From Armatimonadota bacterium (GTDB lineage Bacteria; Armatimonadota; SYMT01): 64,000 nt of DNA. The stretch spans positions 1 to 64,000 of the forward strand of contig JBKBRF010000017.1 of the NCBI GenBank assembly GCA_046292385.1, written 5' to 3'. The notes under the pieces were generated by a model. The model had not been told where the DNA came from, searched no databases, and saw only the letters and a program-made list of their open reading frames with translations. The first letter of the stretch is position 1. The number at the start of each line of letters is the position of its first letter. Shown here piece by piece: positions 1,991 to 41,868 of this stretch. Both the position numbers and the translations under genes were made by a program.

Positions 1991-3505
1991 TCAGCGACCC
2001 TGGCCCGGGTGAGCGCTGGTATAGCGGAGGTTGTCCAGGTAGAAGACGCACGCCTTGCCGTTGTTGTCCTGCATGTTGAAGACGCCGAAGCGGTCCATCA
2101 CCGCTCCCTCGGCGCGGGCGCCCGGCTCGAGCGGCAGTGTGAGCGACTGCGCGCCGAGTCCTACCGTGAGCGCGCCGCTTCCGCCCGCGGCGGAAGGGTC
2201 ATAGCGGAGCGACCATTCGTAGCGGCGCCCATCCGGGTAGAAGAGCAGCTCCGGCCCACCGAACGCCGCGCCGCGCAGGCGGTAAGCCCCCGGCTCTCCC
2301 TCGCGGCGAGCGCGGGAGGTGCCGTACATCGGCGCGAAGAAGCGGCCGGCGGTGGAGAGGCTGTCGAGGTAGACTCCCACGAAGCTCTTCGGCGGCCAGC
2401 CCTGCTCCCGGGAGTTGAACCAGCCGAGGTGCATCCCGGAGTCGATGGAGAAGGCGGGGAACGCCAGGGTGCCGCTGGCGGAGAGCGGGTCATTCAGCGT
2501 GAGGGTGCCGACGTCGTCGCCGTAGTAGCCCTTGAGCTCCGGCTCCTGCACGCGCCAGGCCCGGCCACCCAGCTCGCCGCGCCCGCCGCCGGCATAGCGC
2601 GTGCGCGAGTAGCCGAAGTCGTTGGAGCCGTAGTGGGCGCGGTCGACCACCCGGGCGCGGTTACCCTGGCCTTCCCAGCGCGGATCGACGGAGAGATCGA
2701 TCCGCTCTCCGTTCACCACCAGGTCGTCGAAGTAGGCAGTCAGCTCGTTCCCCGGGAGCTGGCCGTTGAAGAAGCCGAAGCGGTCGATCCGCGCGCCCAG
2801 TTTCCGCAGCTCCGGCCGCAGCGGGTGGACCGTCTCCGCGCCATCGAAGACAAAGGTGATCGTCCCCGGCCCGGCCGGGTCGTATCGGAGCGACCAGGTG
2901 TGCCGCTGACCGTCCGGCGCCACGCGCAGGAGCTCACGGTGATCCAGCTCCCGCACGTTCCGCTCCTGGTCGCCGCCGCCCCGGTTCACGAAGGTGCCGC
3001 CGGCGGTCCAGAGCCGGGTGCCGTAGCTGATCTCCACCGTCGCCCCGTCCGGCTCGTTGTAGCCTTCCAGCCGGAAGCCGACGAAGTCGACAGGCCGCCA
3101 GCCCTGCTCCCGGTGGTTGAAGAAGCCGGCGAAGACGGTGCTGCCGTTCTCGTAGCCGACGGTGGTGGTCGACTGCGTGAGGGCGAGCGTGCCGCTGGCG
3201 CTGAAGGCGTCGTCGAAGGTGAGCGCCGGCAGCCGCCTGGCGTAGGAGGCCGGCGTGAGGCTCCGCCAGACCGTCCCGCCGATGCGGCCATAGCGGAGGC
3301 CCGCGGCGTCCCGGCGGTAGCCGAAGTCCTGCTGCTTCACCTTCGGCGGCAGGGAGATCCGGTTTCGCGCCGCGTCCCAGCCCGGATCGCGGTCGAACCG
3401 CTCCACCTTCTGCCAGAGCCGCCCTTCCCCGGCCGAAACTCCCGGGGTGGTGCCGCAGGCAACGCCGGTCGCGAGTAGTAAAGGGGCCAGTATCCAGAGC
3501 CGCAT
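1991..3505 (-). CDS. Putative lipoprotein with an internally duplicated domain
   Basis: Lipobox-like LLLATGVAC; two homologous halves (DFGY...SASGTL...FN.REQGW.P..FVG...WSLRYDP...DRFG.FN). Confidence 0.7.
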   Translation of the reverse strand: MRLWILAPLLLATGVACGTTPGVSAGEGRLWQKVERFDRDPGWDAARNRISLPPKVKQQDFGYRRDAAGLRYGRIGGTVWRSLTPASYARRLPALTFDDAFSASGTLALTQSTTTVGYENGSTVFAGFFNHREQGWRPVDFVGFRLEGYNEPDGATVEISYGTRLWTAGGTFVNRGGGDQERNVRELDHRELLRVAPDGQRHTWSLRYDPAGPGTITFVFDGAETVHPLRPELRKLGARIDRFGFFNGQLPGNELTAYFDDLVVNGERIDLSVDPRWEGQGNRARVVDRAHYGSNDFGYSRTRYAGGGRGELGGRAWRVQEPELKGYYGDDVGTLTLNDPLSASGTLAFPAFSIDSGMHLGWFNSREQGWPPKSFVGVYLDSLSTAGRFFAPMYGTSRARREGEPGAYRLRGAAFGGPELLFYPDGRRYEWSLRYDPSAAGGSGALTVGLGAQSLTLPLEPGARAEGAVMDRFGVFNMQDNNGKACVFYLDNLRYTSAHPGQGR

Positions 3506-3633: not shown

Positions 3634-4062
3634 ATGGAACCTCGTCTGACTCTCATCACCCTCGGCGTGCAGGACCTCGCCCGCGCCATCAAGTTCTACC
3701 GGGACGGACTCGGCTTCCCGATGTCGAGCGCCAGCCAGGACGATATCGCTTTCTTCCGCACCGGCGGCGTGGCGCTCGCGCTCTATCCGCGCCACCTGCT
3801 GGCGGAGGACGCCCAGGTGCCGGACTCCGCACCCGGCTTCAGCGGCATCACGCTGGCGCACAACGTCCGCGAACGGGAGGAGGTCGACGGGGTGCTGCAG
3901 GAAGCAGTCGAGGCCGGCGCGGAGCTGGTGAAGGCGGCGGAAGACACCTTCTGGGGCGGGCGCAGCGGCTACTTCCGGGACCCGGAGGGCCACCTGTGGG
4001 AGGTGGCGTGGAACCCCCACTCGCCGCTGGACGAGCGTGGGTTCATGACCCTGGCGGAGTAG
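3634..4062 (+). CDS. VOC/glyoxalase family protein
   Basis: LITLGVQDLARAIKFY...FWGGRSGYFRDPEGHLWEVAWNP. Confidence 0.9.
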   Translation: MEPRLTLITLGVQDLARAIKFYRDGLGFPMSSASQDDIAFFRTGGVALALYPRHLLAEDAQVPDSAPGFSGITLAHNVREREEVDGVLQEAVEAGAELVKAAEDTFWGGRSGYFRDPEGHLWEVAWNPHSPLDERGFMTLAE

Positions 4063-38117: not shown

Positions 38118-38906
38118 ATGCGATTTCGCCTGCCGCTTCCGGCGACTCTCCTGGTCGCCCTCGCCTGCGCCGCGGTTCCCGCGCTCTCCGCCGCGCGGCC
38201 CGCGCCGATCCGCGCCGCCGCCACTCCGCAGATCTTTGGGATCTCCCCGGCGCGGGGAGAGCAGGGCGCCTCGCTGACGCTCGTCCTCCAGGGGACCCGC
38301 TTCGAGCACGGCGCGACCGTTAGCCTGGGAGAGGGGATCAGCGTGACGGAAGCGGTGGTGAGCGGGCGGGGAGTCCGGGCGCTGCTCGACCATATCCTGA
38401 CCCTGCGGATCGAGATCGCCGCGGACGCGGAGCCCGGCCCGCGGGATGTGACGGTCACCAACCCCGGCGGCGAGACCGCCGTCGCTCCCGCGGCCTTCGA
38501 GGTGGTCGCTCCACCCCCGGTGCCGCGGCCGGACCTGGCGGGCACCTGGAAGAAGGTGAAGGTCCGGAGCATCCCGGGCCGGCGGGGCGCGGAGGGCAGC
38601 ACCCTCTTCACCGGTACGCTGCAGGTCGCCAACTCCGGTGCCGCGGCGGCGCGCTCGTTCGTGGTGCGGTTCGTCGCGGCGGAGACCGCCGACGGTGAGG
38701 GCGCCCTCCCGCTCGGCAAGCCGAAGAAGGTGGCGCACCGCCTGAAGCCCGGCGCCCGCCACACCGTGAAGCTGAAGGCCCGGCTGCCGCGGAGCGCGCT
38801 CGATCCTACCGGGAAATACCTGCTGGCGCTCCTCGATTCCACCGATCGGGTGGAAGAGGGCGACGAGCAGAACAACGCCGTCGCCTTCGCCCTGCCGGTG
38901 CCGTAG
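38118..38906 (+). CDS. Exported protein with Ig-like (IPT) and CARDB-like domains
   Basis: Signal peptide; GPRDVTVTNPGG; VANSG...YLLALLDSTDRVEEGDEQNN. Confidence 0.75.
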   Translation: MRFRLPLPATLLVALACAAVPALSAARPAPIRAAATPQIFGISPARGEQGASLTLVLQGTRFEHGATVSLGEGISVTEAVVSGRGVRALLDHILTLRIEIAADAEPGPRDVTVTNPGGETAVAPAAFEVVAPPPVPRPDLAGTWKKVKVRSIPGRRGAEGSTLFTGTLQVANSGAAAARSFVVRFVAAETADGEGALPLGKPKKVAHRLKPGARHTVKLKARLPRSALDPTGKYLLALLDSTDRVEEGDEQNNAVAFALPVP

Positions 38907-38965
38907 CAGGTCTCCGAAGGCTCGCGCTCCTCTCGCGCCGGTGCTGAGACCCGGAAAAAAGCCTC

Positions 38966-39035
38966 TTGCGCCTCTGATATCGTGATGATATCATTCTGTC
39001 GTCGTGGTGACATCAGGGGCGAGGGCGGCCATACT
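38966..39035 (+). promoter_or_regulatory. Tandem sigma70 promoters overlapped by 11-bp phased TGATATCA-like operator boxes
   Basis: TTGCGC-N17-TATCAT (38966-38994, extended TGn) and GTGACA-N17-CATACT (39007-39035); boxes at 38975, 38986, 38997 and 39008. Confidence 0.7.
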
Positions 39036-39041
39036 GAGCGT

Positions 39042-39242
39042 ATGAGTGACTCGGCACCCCCCAAGAAACGGACGATGACGGCGGTCACCTATCCGAACCG
39101 CCTGCTGCACTACGACGACGACGAGGGAATGGCGCTGCTGCGCGAGATCGCGCGCCGGCACGGGCTCTCCCTCGCGGCGGCGCTGCGGATGCTCGTGAGA
39201 GAGGCCGCGGAGCGCCGCGGGATACGGAAGAAAACGGAATAG
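39042..39242 (+). CDS. Ribbon-helix-helix (CopG-like) DNA-binding protein
   Basis: 66 aa; beta segment, helix ALLREIARRH, GLS turn, helix LAAALRMLVREAA. Confidence 0.75.
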   Translation: MSDSAPPKKRTMTAVTYPNRLLHYDDDEGMALLREIARRHGLSLAAALRMLVREAAERRGIRKKTE

Positions 39243-39278
39243 GAGCCTATCCCTAGCGAGATCGGCTCTAGACTTTCG

Positions 39279-39348
39279 GCGCGGGCCGAAGTGCCTGGGT
39301 TCTCGTCTGCTAAACGAACCACCCCCAGGCGCACGTGCTTGCCCGCGC
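39279..39348 (+). ncRNA. Y-RNA-like A1 (Ro-binding stem; loop CUGCUAA)
   Basis: gcgcgggc-cg...cttgcccgcgc terminal stem, gtgcctggg/cccaggcgc upper stem. Confidence 0.75.
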
Positions 39349-39355
39349 ATCCTTT

Positions 39356-39477
39356 CCAGACGTAGCTCAACGGCAGAGCATCAGGTAAACCCTTCGGCGG
39401 TGACTTGCCCGGAGACGGGCCGGATGTTGAAGGTTAACGGCCCTTGAGGGGTGCAGGTTCGAATCCTGCCGTCTGGT
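39356..39477 (+). ncRNA. tRNA-shaped Y-RNA-like B1 (Ro helix replaces anticodon arm)
   Basis: Acceptor ccagacg/cgtctgg, D arm tagctc-aacggca-gagc, T arm gcagg-ttcgaat-cctgc; insert cttgcccg-gaga-cgggccg. Confidence 0.8.
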
Positions 39478-39584
39478 GTGAGATGGGCCGCTGCGAATCG
39501 GTTATCGGAGTTCAAGCCTTCCCGTCCCGACCTGTCGGGACGAGCCCACCGGGGGCACCCGATCGCGCTGCTTGCCTGTCTCGC
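39478..39584 (+). ncRNA. YrlA-like Y RNA C1
   Basis: gtgagatgggc-cg...cttgcctgtctcgc stem; interior T-loop-like ttcaagc hairpin, closed acceptor-like cgtcccga/tcgggacg, D-like agccc..gggc. Confidence 0.7.
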
Positions 39585-39588
39585 TTTG

Positions 39589-39656
39589 GAAGCGGGCCGG
39601 AGTGCCTGGGTTATCCTGTCACGATGAACCCCAGGCGCATGCAGCTTGCCTGCTTC
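39589..39656 (+). ncRNA. Y-RNA-like A2 (loop CUGUCAC)
   Basis: gaagcgggccggagtgcctgggttatc...cccaggcgc...cttgcctgcttc. Confidence 0.75.
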
Positions 39657-39689
39657 ACTCCTGGGGCTCTCCACGGAGCGGCCCCGGTT

Positions 39690-39812
39690 TCGGACGTAGC
39701 TCAGAGGTAGAGCACCAGGAAACCCCTTCGCTGCTCACTTGCCCGGAGACGGGCCGAAAGCTGAAGGTTACCTATACCCTGGCGGCCGCGGGTTCGAGTC
39801 CCGCCGTCCGGA
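39690..39812 (+). ncRNA. tRNA-shaped Y-RNA-like B2
   Basis: Acceptor tcggacg/cgtccgg, D arm tagctc-agaggta-gagc, T arm gcggg-ttcgagt-cccgc; insert acttgcccg-gaga-cgggccg identical to B1. Confidence 0.8.
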
Positions 39813-39840
39813 GTGTTCGCTCTCCTGGGAGCGGACTTTA

Positions 39841-39933
39841 GAGATGGGCCGCTGCGGCTCGCTTATCGGCACACAGGTGGGCTCGAGACCCACCACCCTT
39901 CGGGGTTGGCGAGCCGCGTCACTTGTCCATCTC
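39841..39933 (+). ncRNA. Y-RNA-like C2 (reduced YrlA-like)
   Basis: gagatgggc-cg...cttgtccatctc stem; ggtggg-ctcgaga-cccacc and accc-ttcg-gggt hairpins. Confidence 0.7.
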
Positions 39934-39939
39934 AGGTTA

Positions 39940-40100
39940 GAACCGACCCCGTGGGCAAAACGGGCTGCGCCTGGCTGTGAGGTGCGGATTTGTCGTCGCG
40001 GCGGAACGTCCGATATTCGTCCATATCGACCGTCCCGCCGCTCCTAATCTCCGCCCCTCTCGCTCAGGCTCGCCGTACCTTTGCCTACGCGGACCGGTTC
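39940..40100 (+). ncRNA. Unassigned long irregular hairpin RNA
   Basis: Nested pairings gaaccg/cggttc, cgtgggcaaa/tttgcctacg, gcctgg/tcaggc, gcgga/tccgc, gcggcgg/ccgccgc, cgatat/atatcg. Confidence 0.5.
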
Positions 40101-40103
40101 CTG

Positions 40104-40171
40104 GAAGCGGGCCGGAGTGCCTGGGTTATCTTAGGGAGATAACACCCAGGCGCGCGGAGCTTGCCCGCTTC
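40104..40171 (+). ncRNA. Y-RNA-like A3 (loop UUAGGGA)
   Basis: gaagcgggccggagtgcctgggttatc...gataac.cccaggcgc...cttgcccgcttc. Confidence 0.75.
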
Positions 40172-40233
40172 ACCTGTCGGGGTGCGGGGGACAACGGGGT
40201 CTCCCGCACCCTCCGGCCGAGGAGGGCCGTGCC

Positions 40234-41868
40234 ATGACCCAGTACCTGAAGAACGTTTTTTCCGCGCGTCAGACGCCGCAGTCGGAGCCGATCCCCGGCT
40301 CCGGGCAGGTGCCGAACAGCGCGGGCGGGTTCGCCTGGCAGGTCGACGATTGGGCCCGCCTCGATCGCTTCCTGATCCTCGGCAGCGAGGGTGGGTCGTA
40401 CTACGCCTCCGAGCGGAAGCTGACGCTGGAGAACGCGGACGCCGTGGTCCGCTGCCTGGAGGCGGACGGCGAGCGGCTGGTCCGCCGGGTGGTCGAGATC
40501 AGCGAGTCCGGCCGGGCGCCGAAGAACGACCCGGCGATCTTCGCCCTGGCGCTGGCGTGCTCCTTCGGCGACGAGCGGGCGCGCGCGGCGGCGTTCGCGG
40601 CGGTGCCGCGGGTCTGCCGGATCGGGACGCACCTGTTCCACTTCGCGGAGTTCGTAAACGGGATGCGCGGCTGGGGACGCGGGCTGCGGCGCGCCGTGGC
40701 GGCCTGGTACCAGGAGAAGCCGGTGGGGGCGCTTGCGCTGCAGGCGGTGAAGTACCAGCAGCGGGACCGGTGGAGCCACCGGGACCTGCTCCGGCTGGCG
40801 CACCCGGTGCCGGCGGACGAGGACCGCACCGCCCTCTACCGCTGGGTGACCCGCGGGTGGGAGCCGGAGCGGGCGGACCGGTTCGGCCGCGAGGGCGAGC
40901 TGGCGCTGGTCGGCGGCTTCGAGGCGGTGAAGGCGGCCGCCACGGCGGCGGAAGTGGCGGAGTGCATCCGCACCTACCGGCTGCCGCGGGAGGCGGTCCC
41001 GACGCAGTGGCTGACCGACCGCGAGGTGTGGCGGGCGCTGCTGGAGGAGATGCCGATGACCGCGCTGATCCGGAACCTGGCGACGCTGACCCGCGTGGGG
41101 CTGGTGACGCCCGGCTCCGTGGGGACCCGGAAGGTGGTGGAGCAGCTCGGCGACCGGGAGCGGCTCCGGAAGGCGCGCGTGCACCCGATCCAGGTGCTCT
41201 CCGCGCTGAAGACCTACGCCTCCGGCAAGGGCGTGCGCTCCGACCAGAGCTGGGCGCCGGTGCCGCAGGTGGTCGACGCGCTCGACGCGGCGTTCTACGC
41301 GGCGTTCCGGAACGTGGAGCCGACCGGCAAGCGGTGGCTGCTGGCGCTCGACGTCTCCGGCTCGATGGAGTGCGGAGTGATCGCCGGGTGCCCGGGGCTG
41401 ACGCCGCGGGTCGCATCCGCCGCCATGGCGCTGGTCACGGCGGCGGTGGAGAAGCAGTACACGGCGGTAGCGTTCGCCTCCGAGGGGACCTTCGGGTGCC
41501 GGAGCGGGAGCGGGCTGCGGCCCCTGGCGCTCTCCTCGCGACAGCGCCTGGACGACGTGGTGAAGCTGACGCAGGCGCTGCCGTTCGGCGGCACCGACTG
41601 CGCGCTGCCGATGCTCTACGCGCTGGAGCGGAGGCTCGAGGTCGACTGCTTCGTGGTCTACACCGACTCGGAGACGTGGGCCGGAAGCGTCCACCCGGCG
41701 CAGGCGCTGCGGCAGTACCGGGAGTGGATGGGGATCCCGGCCCGGCTGATCGTGGTCGGCATGGTCTCCAACGGGTTTAGCATCGCGGACCCGAACGACC
41801 CCGGCATGCTTGACGTGGTCGGCTTCGACACCGCCACGCCGCAGCTGATGACGGACTTCGCCCGCTGA
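40234..41868 (+). CDS. rsr: Ro60/Rsr TROVE-domain RNA-binding protein
   Basis: NSAGGF, RLDRFLILGSEGGSYY, KYQQRDRWSHRDLLRLAHP, MPMTALIRNL, vWA MIDAS DVSGSM, GGTDC, YTDSET, DVVGFD; SD ggagg. Confidence 0.96.
   Translation: MTQYLKNVFSARQTPQSEPIPGSGQVPNSAGGFAWQVDDWARLDRFLILGSEGGSYYASERKLTLENADAVVRCLEADGERLVRRVVEISESGRAPKNDPAIFALALACSFGDERARAAAFAAVPRVCRIGTHLFHFAEFVNGMRGWGRGLRRAVAAWYQEKPVGALALQAVKYQQRDRWSHRDLLRLAHPVPADEDRTALYRWVTRGWEPERADRFGREGELALVGGFEAVKAAATAAEVAECIRTYRLPREAVPTQWLTDREVWRALLEEMPMTALIRNLATLTRVGLVTPGSVGTRKVVEQLGDRERLRKARVHPIQVLSALKTYASGKGVRSDQSWAPVPQVVDALDAAFYAAFRNVEPTGKRWLLALDVSGSMECGVIAGCPGLTPRVASAAMALVTAAVEKQYTAVAFASEGTFGCRSGSGLRPLALSSRQRLDDVVKLTQALPFGGTDCALPMLYALERRLEVDCFVVYTDSETWAGSVHPAQALRQYREWMGIPARLIVVGMVSNGFSIADPNDPGMLDVVGFDTATPQLMTDFAR

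Follow-up and report, generated by a model that had tools for sequence, protein, structure and literature searches.

The DNA analysed here is a 64,000-nucleotide (nt) stretch (the window) of Armatimonadota bacterium GCA_046292385.1, contig JBKBRF010000017.1, positions 1-64,000 of the forward strand. The window contains rsr, a gene for an orthologue of Ro60, and seven small structured units (A1-B1-C1-A2-B2-C2-A3) are packed in the 960 bases upstream of rsr and on its strand (Table 1). The rsr product is presumed to be the protein partner of this array of Y-like RNAs. Bacterial Y RNAs are thought to descend from transfer RNA (tRNA), and one of them, YrlA, has been described as resembling a circularly permuted tRNA. 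Two units of the array, B1 and B2, combine the acceptor stem, D arm and T arm of a tRNA, in the order of a tRNA gene, with the predicted Ro60-binding helix of a Y RNA. We refer to this design as a tRNA-ordered Y RNA. The start of rsr is 757 nt past the end of B1 and 422 nt past the end of B2, and in relatives that carry rsr the tRNA-ordered units likewise share the strand of the Ro60 gene and lie no more than about 4 kb from it.

Table 1. Features of the rsr locus and parts of units B1 and B2, in window positions
Feature	Position	Strand	Description	Evidence or sequence
Promoter-like site	39007..39035	+	sigma-70-like match, the sole one upstream of the array	GTGACA-17-CATACT; consensus match only
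A1	39279..39348	+	simple hairpin Y RNA (YrlB/stem-bulge RNA-like), ends form the Ro helix	fold z = -3.08; GGGCCG-N9-GGTTC at 39283, CTTGCCCG at 39338
B1	39356..39477	+	tRNA-ordered Y RNA	Rfam tRNA 49.6 bits; model R1 83.6 bits; ARAGORN -i
B1 acceptor stem	39356-39362 with 39470-39476	+	7 base pairs (bp), perfect
B1 U8-A9	39363-39364	+
B1 D arm	39365-39379	+	D loop contains GG	GCUC/GAGC
B1 anticodon-type stem	39381-85 with 39443-47	+	5 bp	UCAGG/CUUGA
B1 Y module	39386-39442	+	Ro 3'-type strand 39403-11, loop 39412-15, Ro 5'-type strand 39416-24, GGUUAAC 39432-38	loop GAGA
B1 T arm	39453-39469	+		GCAGG-UUCGAAU-CCUGC
B1 discriminator	39477	+		U
C1	39480..39582	+	YrlA-type layout	minimum free energy fold z = -2.76; motifs at 39485, 39571
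A2	39589..39656	+	simple hairpin Y RNA	RF01656 32.5 bits, E = 1.5e-4; fold z = -3.37
B2	39690..39812	+	tRNA-ordered Y RNA	Rfam tRNA 50.2 bits; model R1 86.5 bits; ARAGORN -i
B2 acceptor stem	39690-39696 with 39805-39811	+	7 bp, perfect
B2 anticodon-type stem	39715-19 with 39778-82	+	5 bp	CCAGG/CCUGG
B2 Ro strands and loop	39737-45, 39746-49, 39750-58	+	Ro 3'-type strand, loop, Ro 5'-type strand	loop GAGA
B2 residual segment	39771-77	+	7 nt, after the insert	CCUAUAC
B2 T arm	39788-39804	+
B2 discriminator	39812	+		A
Stretch identical in B1 and B2	39403-39422, 39737-39756	+	20 nt	ACUUGCCCG-GAGA-CGGGCCG
C2	39841..39933	+	Y RNA with terminal Ro stem	fold z = -4.62; motifs at 39846, 39922
A3	40104..40171	+	simple hairpin Y RNA just upstream of rsr	RF01656 32.1 bits; fold z = -4.96
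rsr	40234..41868	+	Ro60 orthologue, 544 aa	Pfam TROVE 5.4e-47, vWA_Ro60 1.3e-63

B2 has the layout of B1 throughout, and the two units have in common the GCUC/GAGC D stem, U8-A9 and a 5-nt variable region, with T loops of UUCGAAU or UUCGAGU and no CCA encoded after the discriminator. A first-pass annotation, made from the DNA letters alone, had listed the acceptor stem, U8-A9, the D arm, the T arm and the lack of an encoded CCA, and all of this is present as described. It had further described an insert of roughly 65 nt, holding the Ro helix, in place of the anticodon arm. The loop is indeed swapped for this insert, but a 5-bp anticodon-type stem is kept in both units, and the insert measures 50-58 nt. 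Within it, the strands of the Ro helix are in reversed order and capped by GAGA, and the stretch around the cap is identical in the two units, as had been noticed. Neither unit has a normal 7-nt anticodon loop with U33 and a usable anticodon, and B2 has a C at position 33.

The motif GGGCCG-N9-GSTTM has seven matches in the window, one in each unit of the array and none elsewhere (0.46 expected), and CTTGYCYR has seven in the 4.6-kb locus, again one per unit, vs 1.04 expected. Together the two motifs represent both strands of the bulged helix that binds Ro60, along with GGUUAUC. CTTGYCYR lies upstream of the GGGCCG strand only in B1 and B2, where the two strands are 4 nt apart and joined by GAGA; in the A and C units GGGCCG comes first and CUUGCC last. 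The helix, predicted from sequence, is present with its bulged C in both B units, and the B2 sequence GCCGAAAG fits the published Ro60 5'-strand motif GNCGAAN0-1G. Strands of the GGGCCG type occur in 31 of the 37 units that we aligned (see below).

The Rfam tRNA model (RF00005, cut-off 29 bits) matches B1 and B2 over all 71 of its positions, and the alignment skips 56 nt (B1) or 58 nt (B2) in the anticodon loop. The standard mode of ARAGORN makes no call on either unit. With introns allowed, it reports a tRNA-Pro(agg) with a 50-nt "intron" for B1 and a tRNA-Ile(tat) with a 51-nt "intron" for B2, the kind of call that the first-pass annotation had anticipated. The intron mode was unusable as a screen of the whole genome, where it gave 22 calls, mostly implausible. 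A recent origin of B1 or B2 from a tRNA of the host was considered and rejected because the two units are close to none of its 56 tRNAs (best half-scores 22-26, compared with 29 for B1 against B2).

The published YrlA seed alignment (Chen 2014, PMC4201824, supplementary text 2) runs from the Ro 5' strand through GGUUAUC, a small "V" hairpin, the T arm GGUUCGAAUCC, a closed acceptor and the D arm UAGCUCA..AGAGC to the Ro 3' strand. The order in B1 and B2 is acceptor 5' strand, D arm, Ro 3' strand, loop, Ro 5' strand, GGUUA, T arm and acceptor 3' strand. In predicted structure the B units are thus a circular permutation of the YrlA layout in which the break has moved from the Ro stem to the acceptor stem. 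They resemble YrlA in lying beside rsr on its strand, in having a Ro 5' strand followed by a GGUUAUC-type motif, in the T arm GGUUCGAnUCC and the D arm UAGCUCA..AGAGC, and in the covariation of G15:C48 with A15:U48; the YrlA-type tRNA-like domain, with T and D arms and the nucleotides of the tertiary pairs, is present in both. They differ in their ends: YrlA ends in the Ro stem and has a loop-closed acceptor, whereas the B units end in the acceptor and have a loop-closed Ro helix. YrlA topology, with the T arm 5' of the D arm, is found in C1 and not in B1 or B2, where the D arm is 5' of the T arm. C1 had been described in the first pass as the opposite permutation, and it folds in that way: its terminal Ro stem encloses three hairpins, one T-like, one of 8 bp (CGUCCCGA/UCGGGACG) with a CCUG loop, and one D-like of 4 bp. 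The D arm of C1 is degenerate. The accompanying statement that canonical YrlA has the topology of C1 agrees with the seed alignment, and the locus does hold the two permutations side by side. The fold of C2 has a T-like hairpin (GUGGG-CUCGAGA-CCCAC) and a UUCG-capped hairpin, and the D arm is absent.

We aligned 37 tRNA-ordered units from 17 loci. Because MAFFT misaligned the 5' half of the Y module, we used a covariance model of the units themselves and our own scanner. Within this alignment 86.2% of the cells pair, vs 38.5-44.4% in slid controls (partner columns moved by 1-3), and the observed value is reached in 0 of 500 shuffles. The acceptor is paired in 94.6% of cells, with compensatory changes at 7/7 pairs, the D stem in 99.2%, the T stem in 99.4%, and the Ro helix in 91.0%, mostly with changes from C:G to U:G. 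The nucleotides of the tRNA tertiary core are also retained: U8 is found in 32 of the 37 rows, A14 in 33 and the GG of the D loop in 32, and the Levitt pair 15:48 is G:C in 17/35 and A:U in 12/35 (A:U in B1, G:C in B2).

The first-pass annotation had suggested a search for similar units beside other rsr genes. The Rsr protein search found relatives in 12 of 41 related genomes and in 16 named records of metagenome-assembled genomes (MAGs), the latter labelled Capsulimonadaceae/Armatimonadota, Pirellulales, Solirubrobacterales, Gaiellaceae and other Actinomycetes, Caldilineaceae, Entotheonella and Pseudomonadota; the same search of viral contigs found no relatives. Below, source loci and genomes carry labels that begin with L or G. 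A covariance model built from 15 units (R1) gave matches of at least 100 nt in 22 of the 29 rsr-bearing sources. With a strict script, in which a unit must have U8, the two Y motifs, a D stem, a T arm and an acceptor of 7 bp without mismatch, we identified 43 distinct units in 26 of 64 sources, among them Armatimonadota, Actinomycetota, Caldilineaceae and Entotheonella; one of the 43 (L029:1114-1333, 220 nt) probably spans neighbouring tRNAs. In the window genome only B1 and B2 pass this script. Judged from sequence, the tRNA-ordered design is a family, conserved beside rsr in at least four phylum-level groups. In a sample of 151 Armatimonadota genomes, 33 have a TROVE gene. Among the matches listed (at least 63.6 bits), all 31 R1 matches of at least 120 nt fall in 22 of the 33 TROVE-positive genomes and none in the 118 TROVE-negative genomes. 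Where match and TROVE gene share a contig, the match is usually within 1 kb upstream of the gene and on the same strand (among the matches listed). A cruder script for closed-acceptor units of the C type was noisy, with compact hairpins in only five sources (the window, L024, L031, L046 and L053), and no count of co-occurrence was drawn from it.

The units fall into three layouts that differ in how the Y module is set into the anticodon arm. In layout 1, to which B1 and B2 belong (B2 with its residual segment), the module sits on the 5-bp anticodon-type stem, and layout 2 adds a GCAA-capped hairpin to this arrangement. In layout 3 (19 of the 43 units), the module lies within the 5' strand of the anticodon stem and GGUUA is followed by a hairpin of 3-5 bp with a 7-nt loop. 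The loops of layout 3 have a pyrimidine at position 32 in 18/19 units, U33 in 17/19 and a purine at position 37 in 17/19, and the middle triplet varies. The loop pattern Y-U-NNN-R-N with a hypervariable triplet was seen in L011, L014, L015, L017, L022-L024 and L043-L061. The "V" arm of the published actinobacterial YrlAs has the signature of the layout-3 hairpin and is flanked by a covarying 2-bp closure. The "V" hairpin of YrlA may accordingly be a mimic of the anticodon arm and not a variable arm.

The acceptor ends vary between units. For 36 of the 43, the discriminator has a possible pairing partner in the base that precedes the acceptor, giving an 8-bp helix, and this pair is G-1:C73 in 25 units. 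Six related units (L022:2057-2176, L023:2455-2576, L024:2078-2219 and units in L043, L044 and L046) encode ACCA directly past the 8-bp helix. G3:U70 is found in 4/43 units, two of which also have A73 (L022:2279-2387 and L024:2462-2567), an alanine-type acceptor like that of transfer-messenger RNA (tmRNA). Units with G-1:C73 (histidine-type), with G3:U70 and A73 (alanine-type) or with encoded ACCA would be the candidates for charging. B1 and B2 have none of G-1:C73, G3:U70 or encoded ACCA, and their charging finds no support in the identity of these positions.

The arrangement of the locus points to joint transcription. The gaps between units are 10 nt (A1-B1), 2 nt (B1-C1), 4-6 nt (C1-A2), 33 nt and 28 nt, and the first three spacers are too short to leave room for separate promoters. 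Two promoter-like sites were found in 38850-40300 (0.1 expected), and that scan found none between array units. One transcript that is later cut is the simplest reading, since the gaps are short and the sole promoter-like site upstream of the array lies before a small open reading frame (ORF). That site is a possible start of a transcript covering the small ORF, the Y RNA array and rsr. The ORF itself (39043-39242, + strand) lies between the promoter-like site and A1, encodes about 66 aa from ATG (86 aa from a GTG at 38982), has no Pfam match and may be co-transcribed with the array.

RNA evidence comes from the assembled contigs of one metatranscriptome run, among four runs compared with the locus. 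A 268-nt contig extends from C2 into the beginning of A3 (39845-40111) and differs from the window by 8 letters and 1 gap. It includes the 170-nt spacer between C2 and A3 (39934-40103), which is without Y motifs and has a weak terminator-like hairpin at 39965-39987. Another contig touches 19 nt of the B1 T arm and 24 nt of the B2 T arm and acceptor 3' strand, with unrelated sequence between them. Contig "joints" at 39714/39787 were set aside, as they are ordinary tRNAs of other organisms that match the D and T arms.

We propose that the seven units would be transcribed together with rsr, after which RNase P would cut the 5' ends of the B units (before 39356 and 39690) and RNase Z would cut after their discriminators (39477 and 39812). 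The same cuts would set the 3' end of the unit upstream and the 5' end of the unit downstream, so that C1 would begin two bases before its stem. The CCA-adding enzyme would then tail the B units. In the matured RNA, the Y module (the bulged Ro60-binding helix and GGUUA) would be closed into a hairpin atop the anticodon stem of a body with an open acceptor and canonical D and T arms; the hairpin would dock on the ring of Rsr, with the L-shaped body of the tRNA part serving as an effector-binding or gating domain, as proposed for YrlA. To our knowledge, no effector that reads the tRNA-like body of YrlA has been named. The window genome encodes the enzymes that this scheme needs: a bacterial RNase P RNA (265.7 bits), an RNase Z above the curated cut-off and a PF01743 (CCA-type) nucleotidyltransferase. 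CCA is encoded by 7 of its 56 tRNA genes and lacking from 49, and precursors without CCA are therefore normal substrates in this genome. That the B units may have free acceptor ends and receive CCA, as the first pass had suggested, is well motivated by the short spacers, these enzymes, the tRNA genes without CCA and the precedent of Mycobacterium smegmatis YrlA (see below).

We consider it likely that B1 and B2 belong to the YrlA lineage of Y RNAs, associate with Rsr and have their strands in the native order of a tRNA, with release by RNase P and RNase Z, CCA tailing and docking on Rsr as predicted properties. Several observations weigh against this. The Rfam YrlA model (RF02553, gathering score 69 bits) matches no unit of the window at E <= 10 in either the genome search or a local scan. 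The B1 sequence GCCGGAUG does not fit the published motif GNCGAAN0-1G, which is present in only 9 of the 37 aligned units. The Ro helix has just 5 bp below the bulged C and is closed by a tetraloop, and its binding by Rsr is a prediction. The upper stem of the Y module aligned poorly (52.6% of cells paired), although it covaries by eye (CCUUC/GAAGG, CCGUC/GACGG, ACAG/CUGU). The alignment (A4) was fitted to its own model, which favours pairing, and the slid controls carry an equal bias. B1 is outside the 36 units with an 8-bp helix, so the sites of cleavage may differ between units. A further 951 lower-scoring R1 matches lie outside the top matches listed; the TROVE linkage consequently holds for strong matches only, and weaker long matches in TROVE-negative genomes are possible. 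The metatranscriptome run gave no informative cover of B1 or B2 and no RNA ends.

The positions of the B units in the array might instead mean that they are mainly processing punctuation, recruiting RNase P and RNase Z to free the A and C Y RNAs, with the excised B RNA having no role of its own. Spacers of 10, 2 and 4 nt, the absence of promoter-like sites between units and the occurrence of B units between other Y RNAs in several loci are what such a role would predict. Plain punctuation has no need of a Y module, however, and the module inside the B units is conserved, with its Ro helix paired at 91% across the 37 units and its GGGCCG-N9-GGUUA spacing equal in A, B and C units. In some loci (for example G147) the B unit is immediately followed by rsr and has no Y RNA downstream of it, and we regard punctuation as an unlikely account of these genes. 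The B units might also be decayed leftovers of duplicated tRNA or Y RNA genes, without function. Duplicated small-RNA arrays often contain degenerate copies, and C2 is without a D arm, but the design is kept beside rsr in at least four phylum-level groups, which makes simple decay highly improbable. The calls of ARAGORN in intron mode would follow if the B units were real tRNA genes whose intervening sequence is removed to give a working tRNA. Removal of the module in relatives would leave a 5-bp stem with a 7-nt loop, and the genome has RtcB. Against splicing, AGG and UAU make implausible anticodons, the loop remaining in B1 would have 6 nt and that in B2 a C at position 33, the 56 tRNA genes already serve all 20 amino acids, and the supposed intron is the Ro-binding module that the A and C units also carry. 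The site of the insert is not constant (28/29 or 31/32), Rfam intron families have no match in 39200-40260 at E <= 10 and no recognisable intron of the group I type was seen there, and RtcB is on another contig. We give the spliced-tRNA explanation almost no credence.

The free CCA end and, in relatives, the anticodon-like loop could also be the working parts of charged or translation-linked tRNA mimics, or of decoys or sensors for tRNA-targeting nucleases, that bring Rsr to ribosomes, synthetases or damaged-tRNA pathways. The 19 units of layout 3, which keep a hairpin of 3-5 bp at the anticodon position with pyrimidine-32, U33 and purine-37 in a 7-nt loop, are suggestive of such a role, as are G-1:C73 in 25/43 units, encoded ACCA in six, G3:U70 in four (two with A73) and, in Actinomycetota loci, the location of rsr within extensive arrays of ordinary tRNA genes. 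The six ACCA units, though, are closely related to each other and count as few events, G:U is no commoner at 3:70 than at other acceptor positions, and B1 and B2 are without the anticodon-type hairpin, G-1:C73 and G3:U70. As an explanation of the B units, this is very doubtful: it finds no support in B1 and B2, and a charging or decoy role may apply to some relatives. A bolder reading is that tRNA-ordered Y RNAs mature as tRNAs do and that at least some of them are aminoacylated. Ro60 would then hold a charged tRNA mimic able to engage the ribosome, EF-Tu or synthetases, or to sense anticodon nucleases, and the B form would be the ancestral link from tRNA to YrlA. We hold this reading to be rather unlikely.

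Several known RNAs are close to the tRNA-ordered Y RNAs. In Mycobacterium smegmatis YrlA, the 7-bp acceptor is cut by RNase P, trimmed at the 3' side and CCA-tailed in vivo (PMC4201824; bioRxiv 10.1101/312249). Recognition of a 7-bp acceptor by RNase P and the existence of an open, CCA-bearing Y RNA end in vivo are therefore precedents; that end arises by cutting a closed loop and yields a two-piece RNA, whereas the B units would have theirs by gene order and in one piece. The discussion in the same preprint favours dimeric tRNA transcripts as the origin of YrlA. The exact order of YrlA would result if two B units in tandem lost their outer ends by trimming, and a B form that linked tRNA to YrlA in this way would fit the "dimeric tRNA" model. 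The b7a-tRNA (Burroughs and Aravind 2016), a predicted tRNA-like RNA of RNA-repair loci that is said to lie occasionally next to Rsr, was compared through its description in bioRxiv 10.1101/312249. By that description it is likewise tRNA-ordered, tRNA-like and at times Rsr-adjacent, and differs in that it is said to resemble authentic tRNA strongly, with a Ro-binding module going unmentioned in that description. No Band-7 or RtcB domain was found among 12 neighbouring ORFs scanned; the RtcB gene of the genome is on contig C12, beside a methyltransferase, and not at the rsr locus.

Two-piece tmRNA arises from permuted genes. Circularly permuted tRNA genes occur in some algae and one archaeon (cited in bioRxiv 10.1101/312249). 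Like the genes described here, these are natural circular permutations of a gene for a tRNA-shaped RNA; unlike theirs, whose products are restored to working tRNA or tmRNA, both orders at the rsr locus seem to be end products, in RNAs that partner Ro60. Metazoan Y RNAs and nematode stem-bulge RNAs (RF01656) have the bulged helix GGGCCG/CUUGCC and the GGGUUAUC motif in common with the B units, and differ from them in lacking a tRNA body and in having ends that always close the Ro helix. A2 and A3 align across both strands to RF01656, the Y-homologue stem-bulge family, at about 32 bits, below its cut-off of 38. Within the literature searched, in which the content of the b7a-tRNA report and of Sim and Wolin 2018 was unchecked, we found no mention of Y RNAs that have tRNA order and close the Ro helix. 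Table S1 of Chen 2014 (PMC4201824) includes a "putative YrlA" of 128 nt from an Armatimonadetes genome, that of Fimbriimonas ginsengisoli, at 382 nt upstream of rsr, and tRNA-ordered units may already have been counted there without comment; we know this table entry by its length and position only. The tRNA-ordered Y RNA is thus a variant form of known YrlA-type Y RNAs that has apparently not been described before, with the nearest candidates compared by description only.

A form that retains the original tRNA order and an open acceptor in several phyla would be the missing non-permuted counterpart in models of the origin of YrlA. It leads one to expect that entire arrays of Y RNAs are shaped by RNase P and RNase Z, makes the trimming, CCA tailing and charging of such RNAs as real tRNAs testable, and offers one-piece natural substrates for asking if an RNA bound to Ro60 can carry CCA or an amino acid. 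For annotation, genes of this kind escape default ARAGORN and the Rfam YrlA model, and intron-tolerant tRNA finders would call them as odd tRNAs.

Other tRNA-like genes were seen near rsr and elsewhere. In six Actinomycetota MAGs (L028, L029, L030, L033, L036 and L037, with rsr at 3001 in each), rsr lies amid dense arrays of tRNA genes of ordinary length; Rfam tRNA matches number 90 across 16 loci, with about 25 in L028 and about 21 in L029. tRNA-ordered Y units are found at the rsr-proximal end in four of these six loci (L028, L029, L030 and L036). The placement of rsr within tRNA arrays suggests a link between the units of such arrays and Ro60. In an Armatimonadota genome (L014), the Y units immediately upstream of rsr are interspersed with two tRNA genes of ordinary length (3225-3296 and 3719-3791, - strand), whose anticodon loops contain CCA and CAU. 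An rsr-adjacent tRNA-like unit at L013:943-1085 has no Y module and holds an AT-rich palindromic repeat in its anticodon arm; copies of the palindrome flank the locus (630-700 and 1175-1250), so that the repeat resembles a small mobile element. At G000:C5:199142-199303 (L073:6143-6304), two tRNA-like genes lie in tandem upstream of genes for an FHA/zinc-ribbon protein, a kinase-PP2C fusion and a VWA protein. Their D and T arms are identical, and each has an anticodon loop of 8 nt (labelled "ctct" and "cgaa" by ARAGORN).

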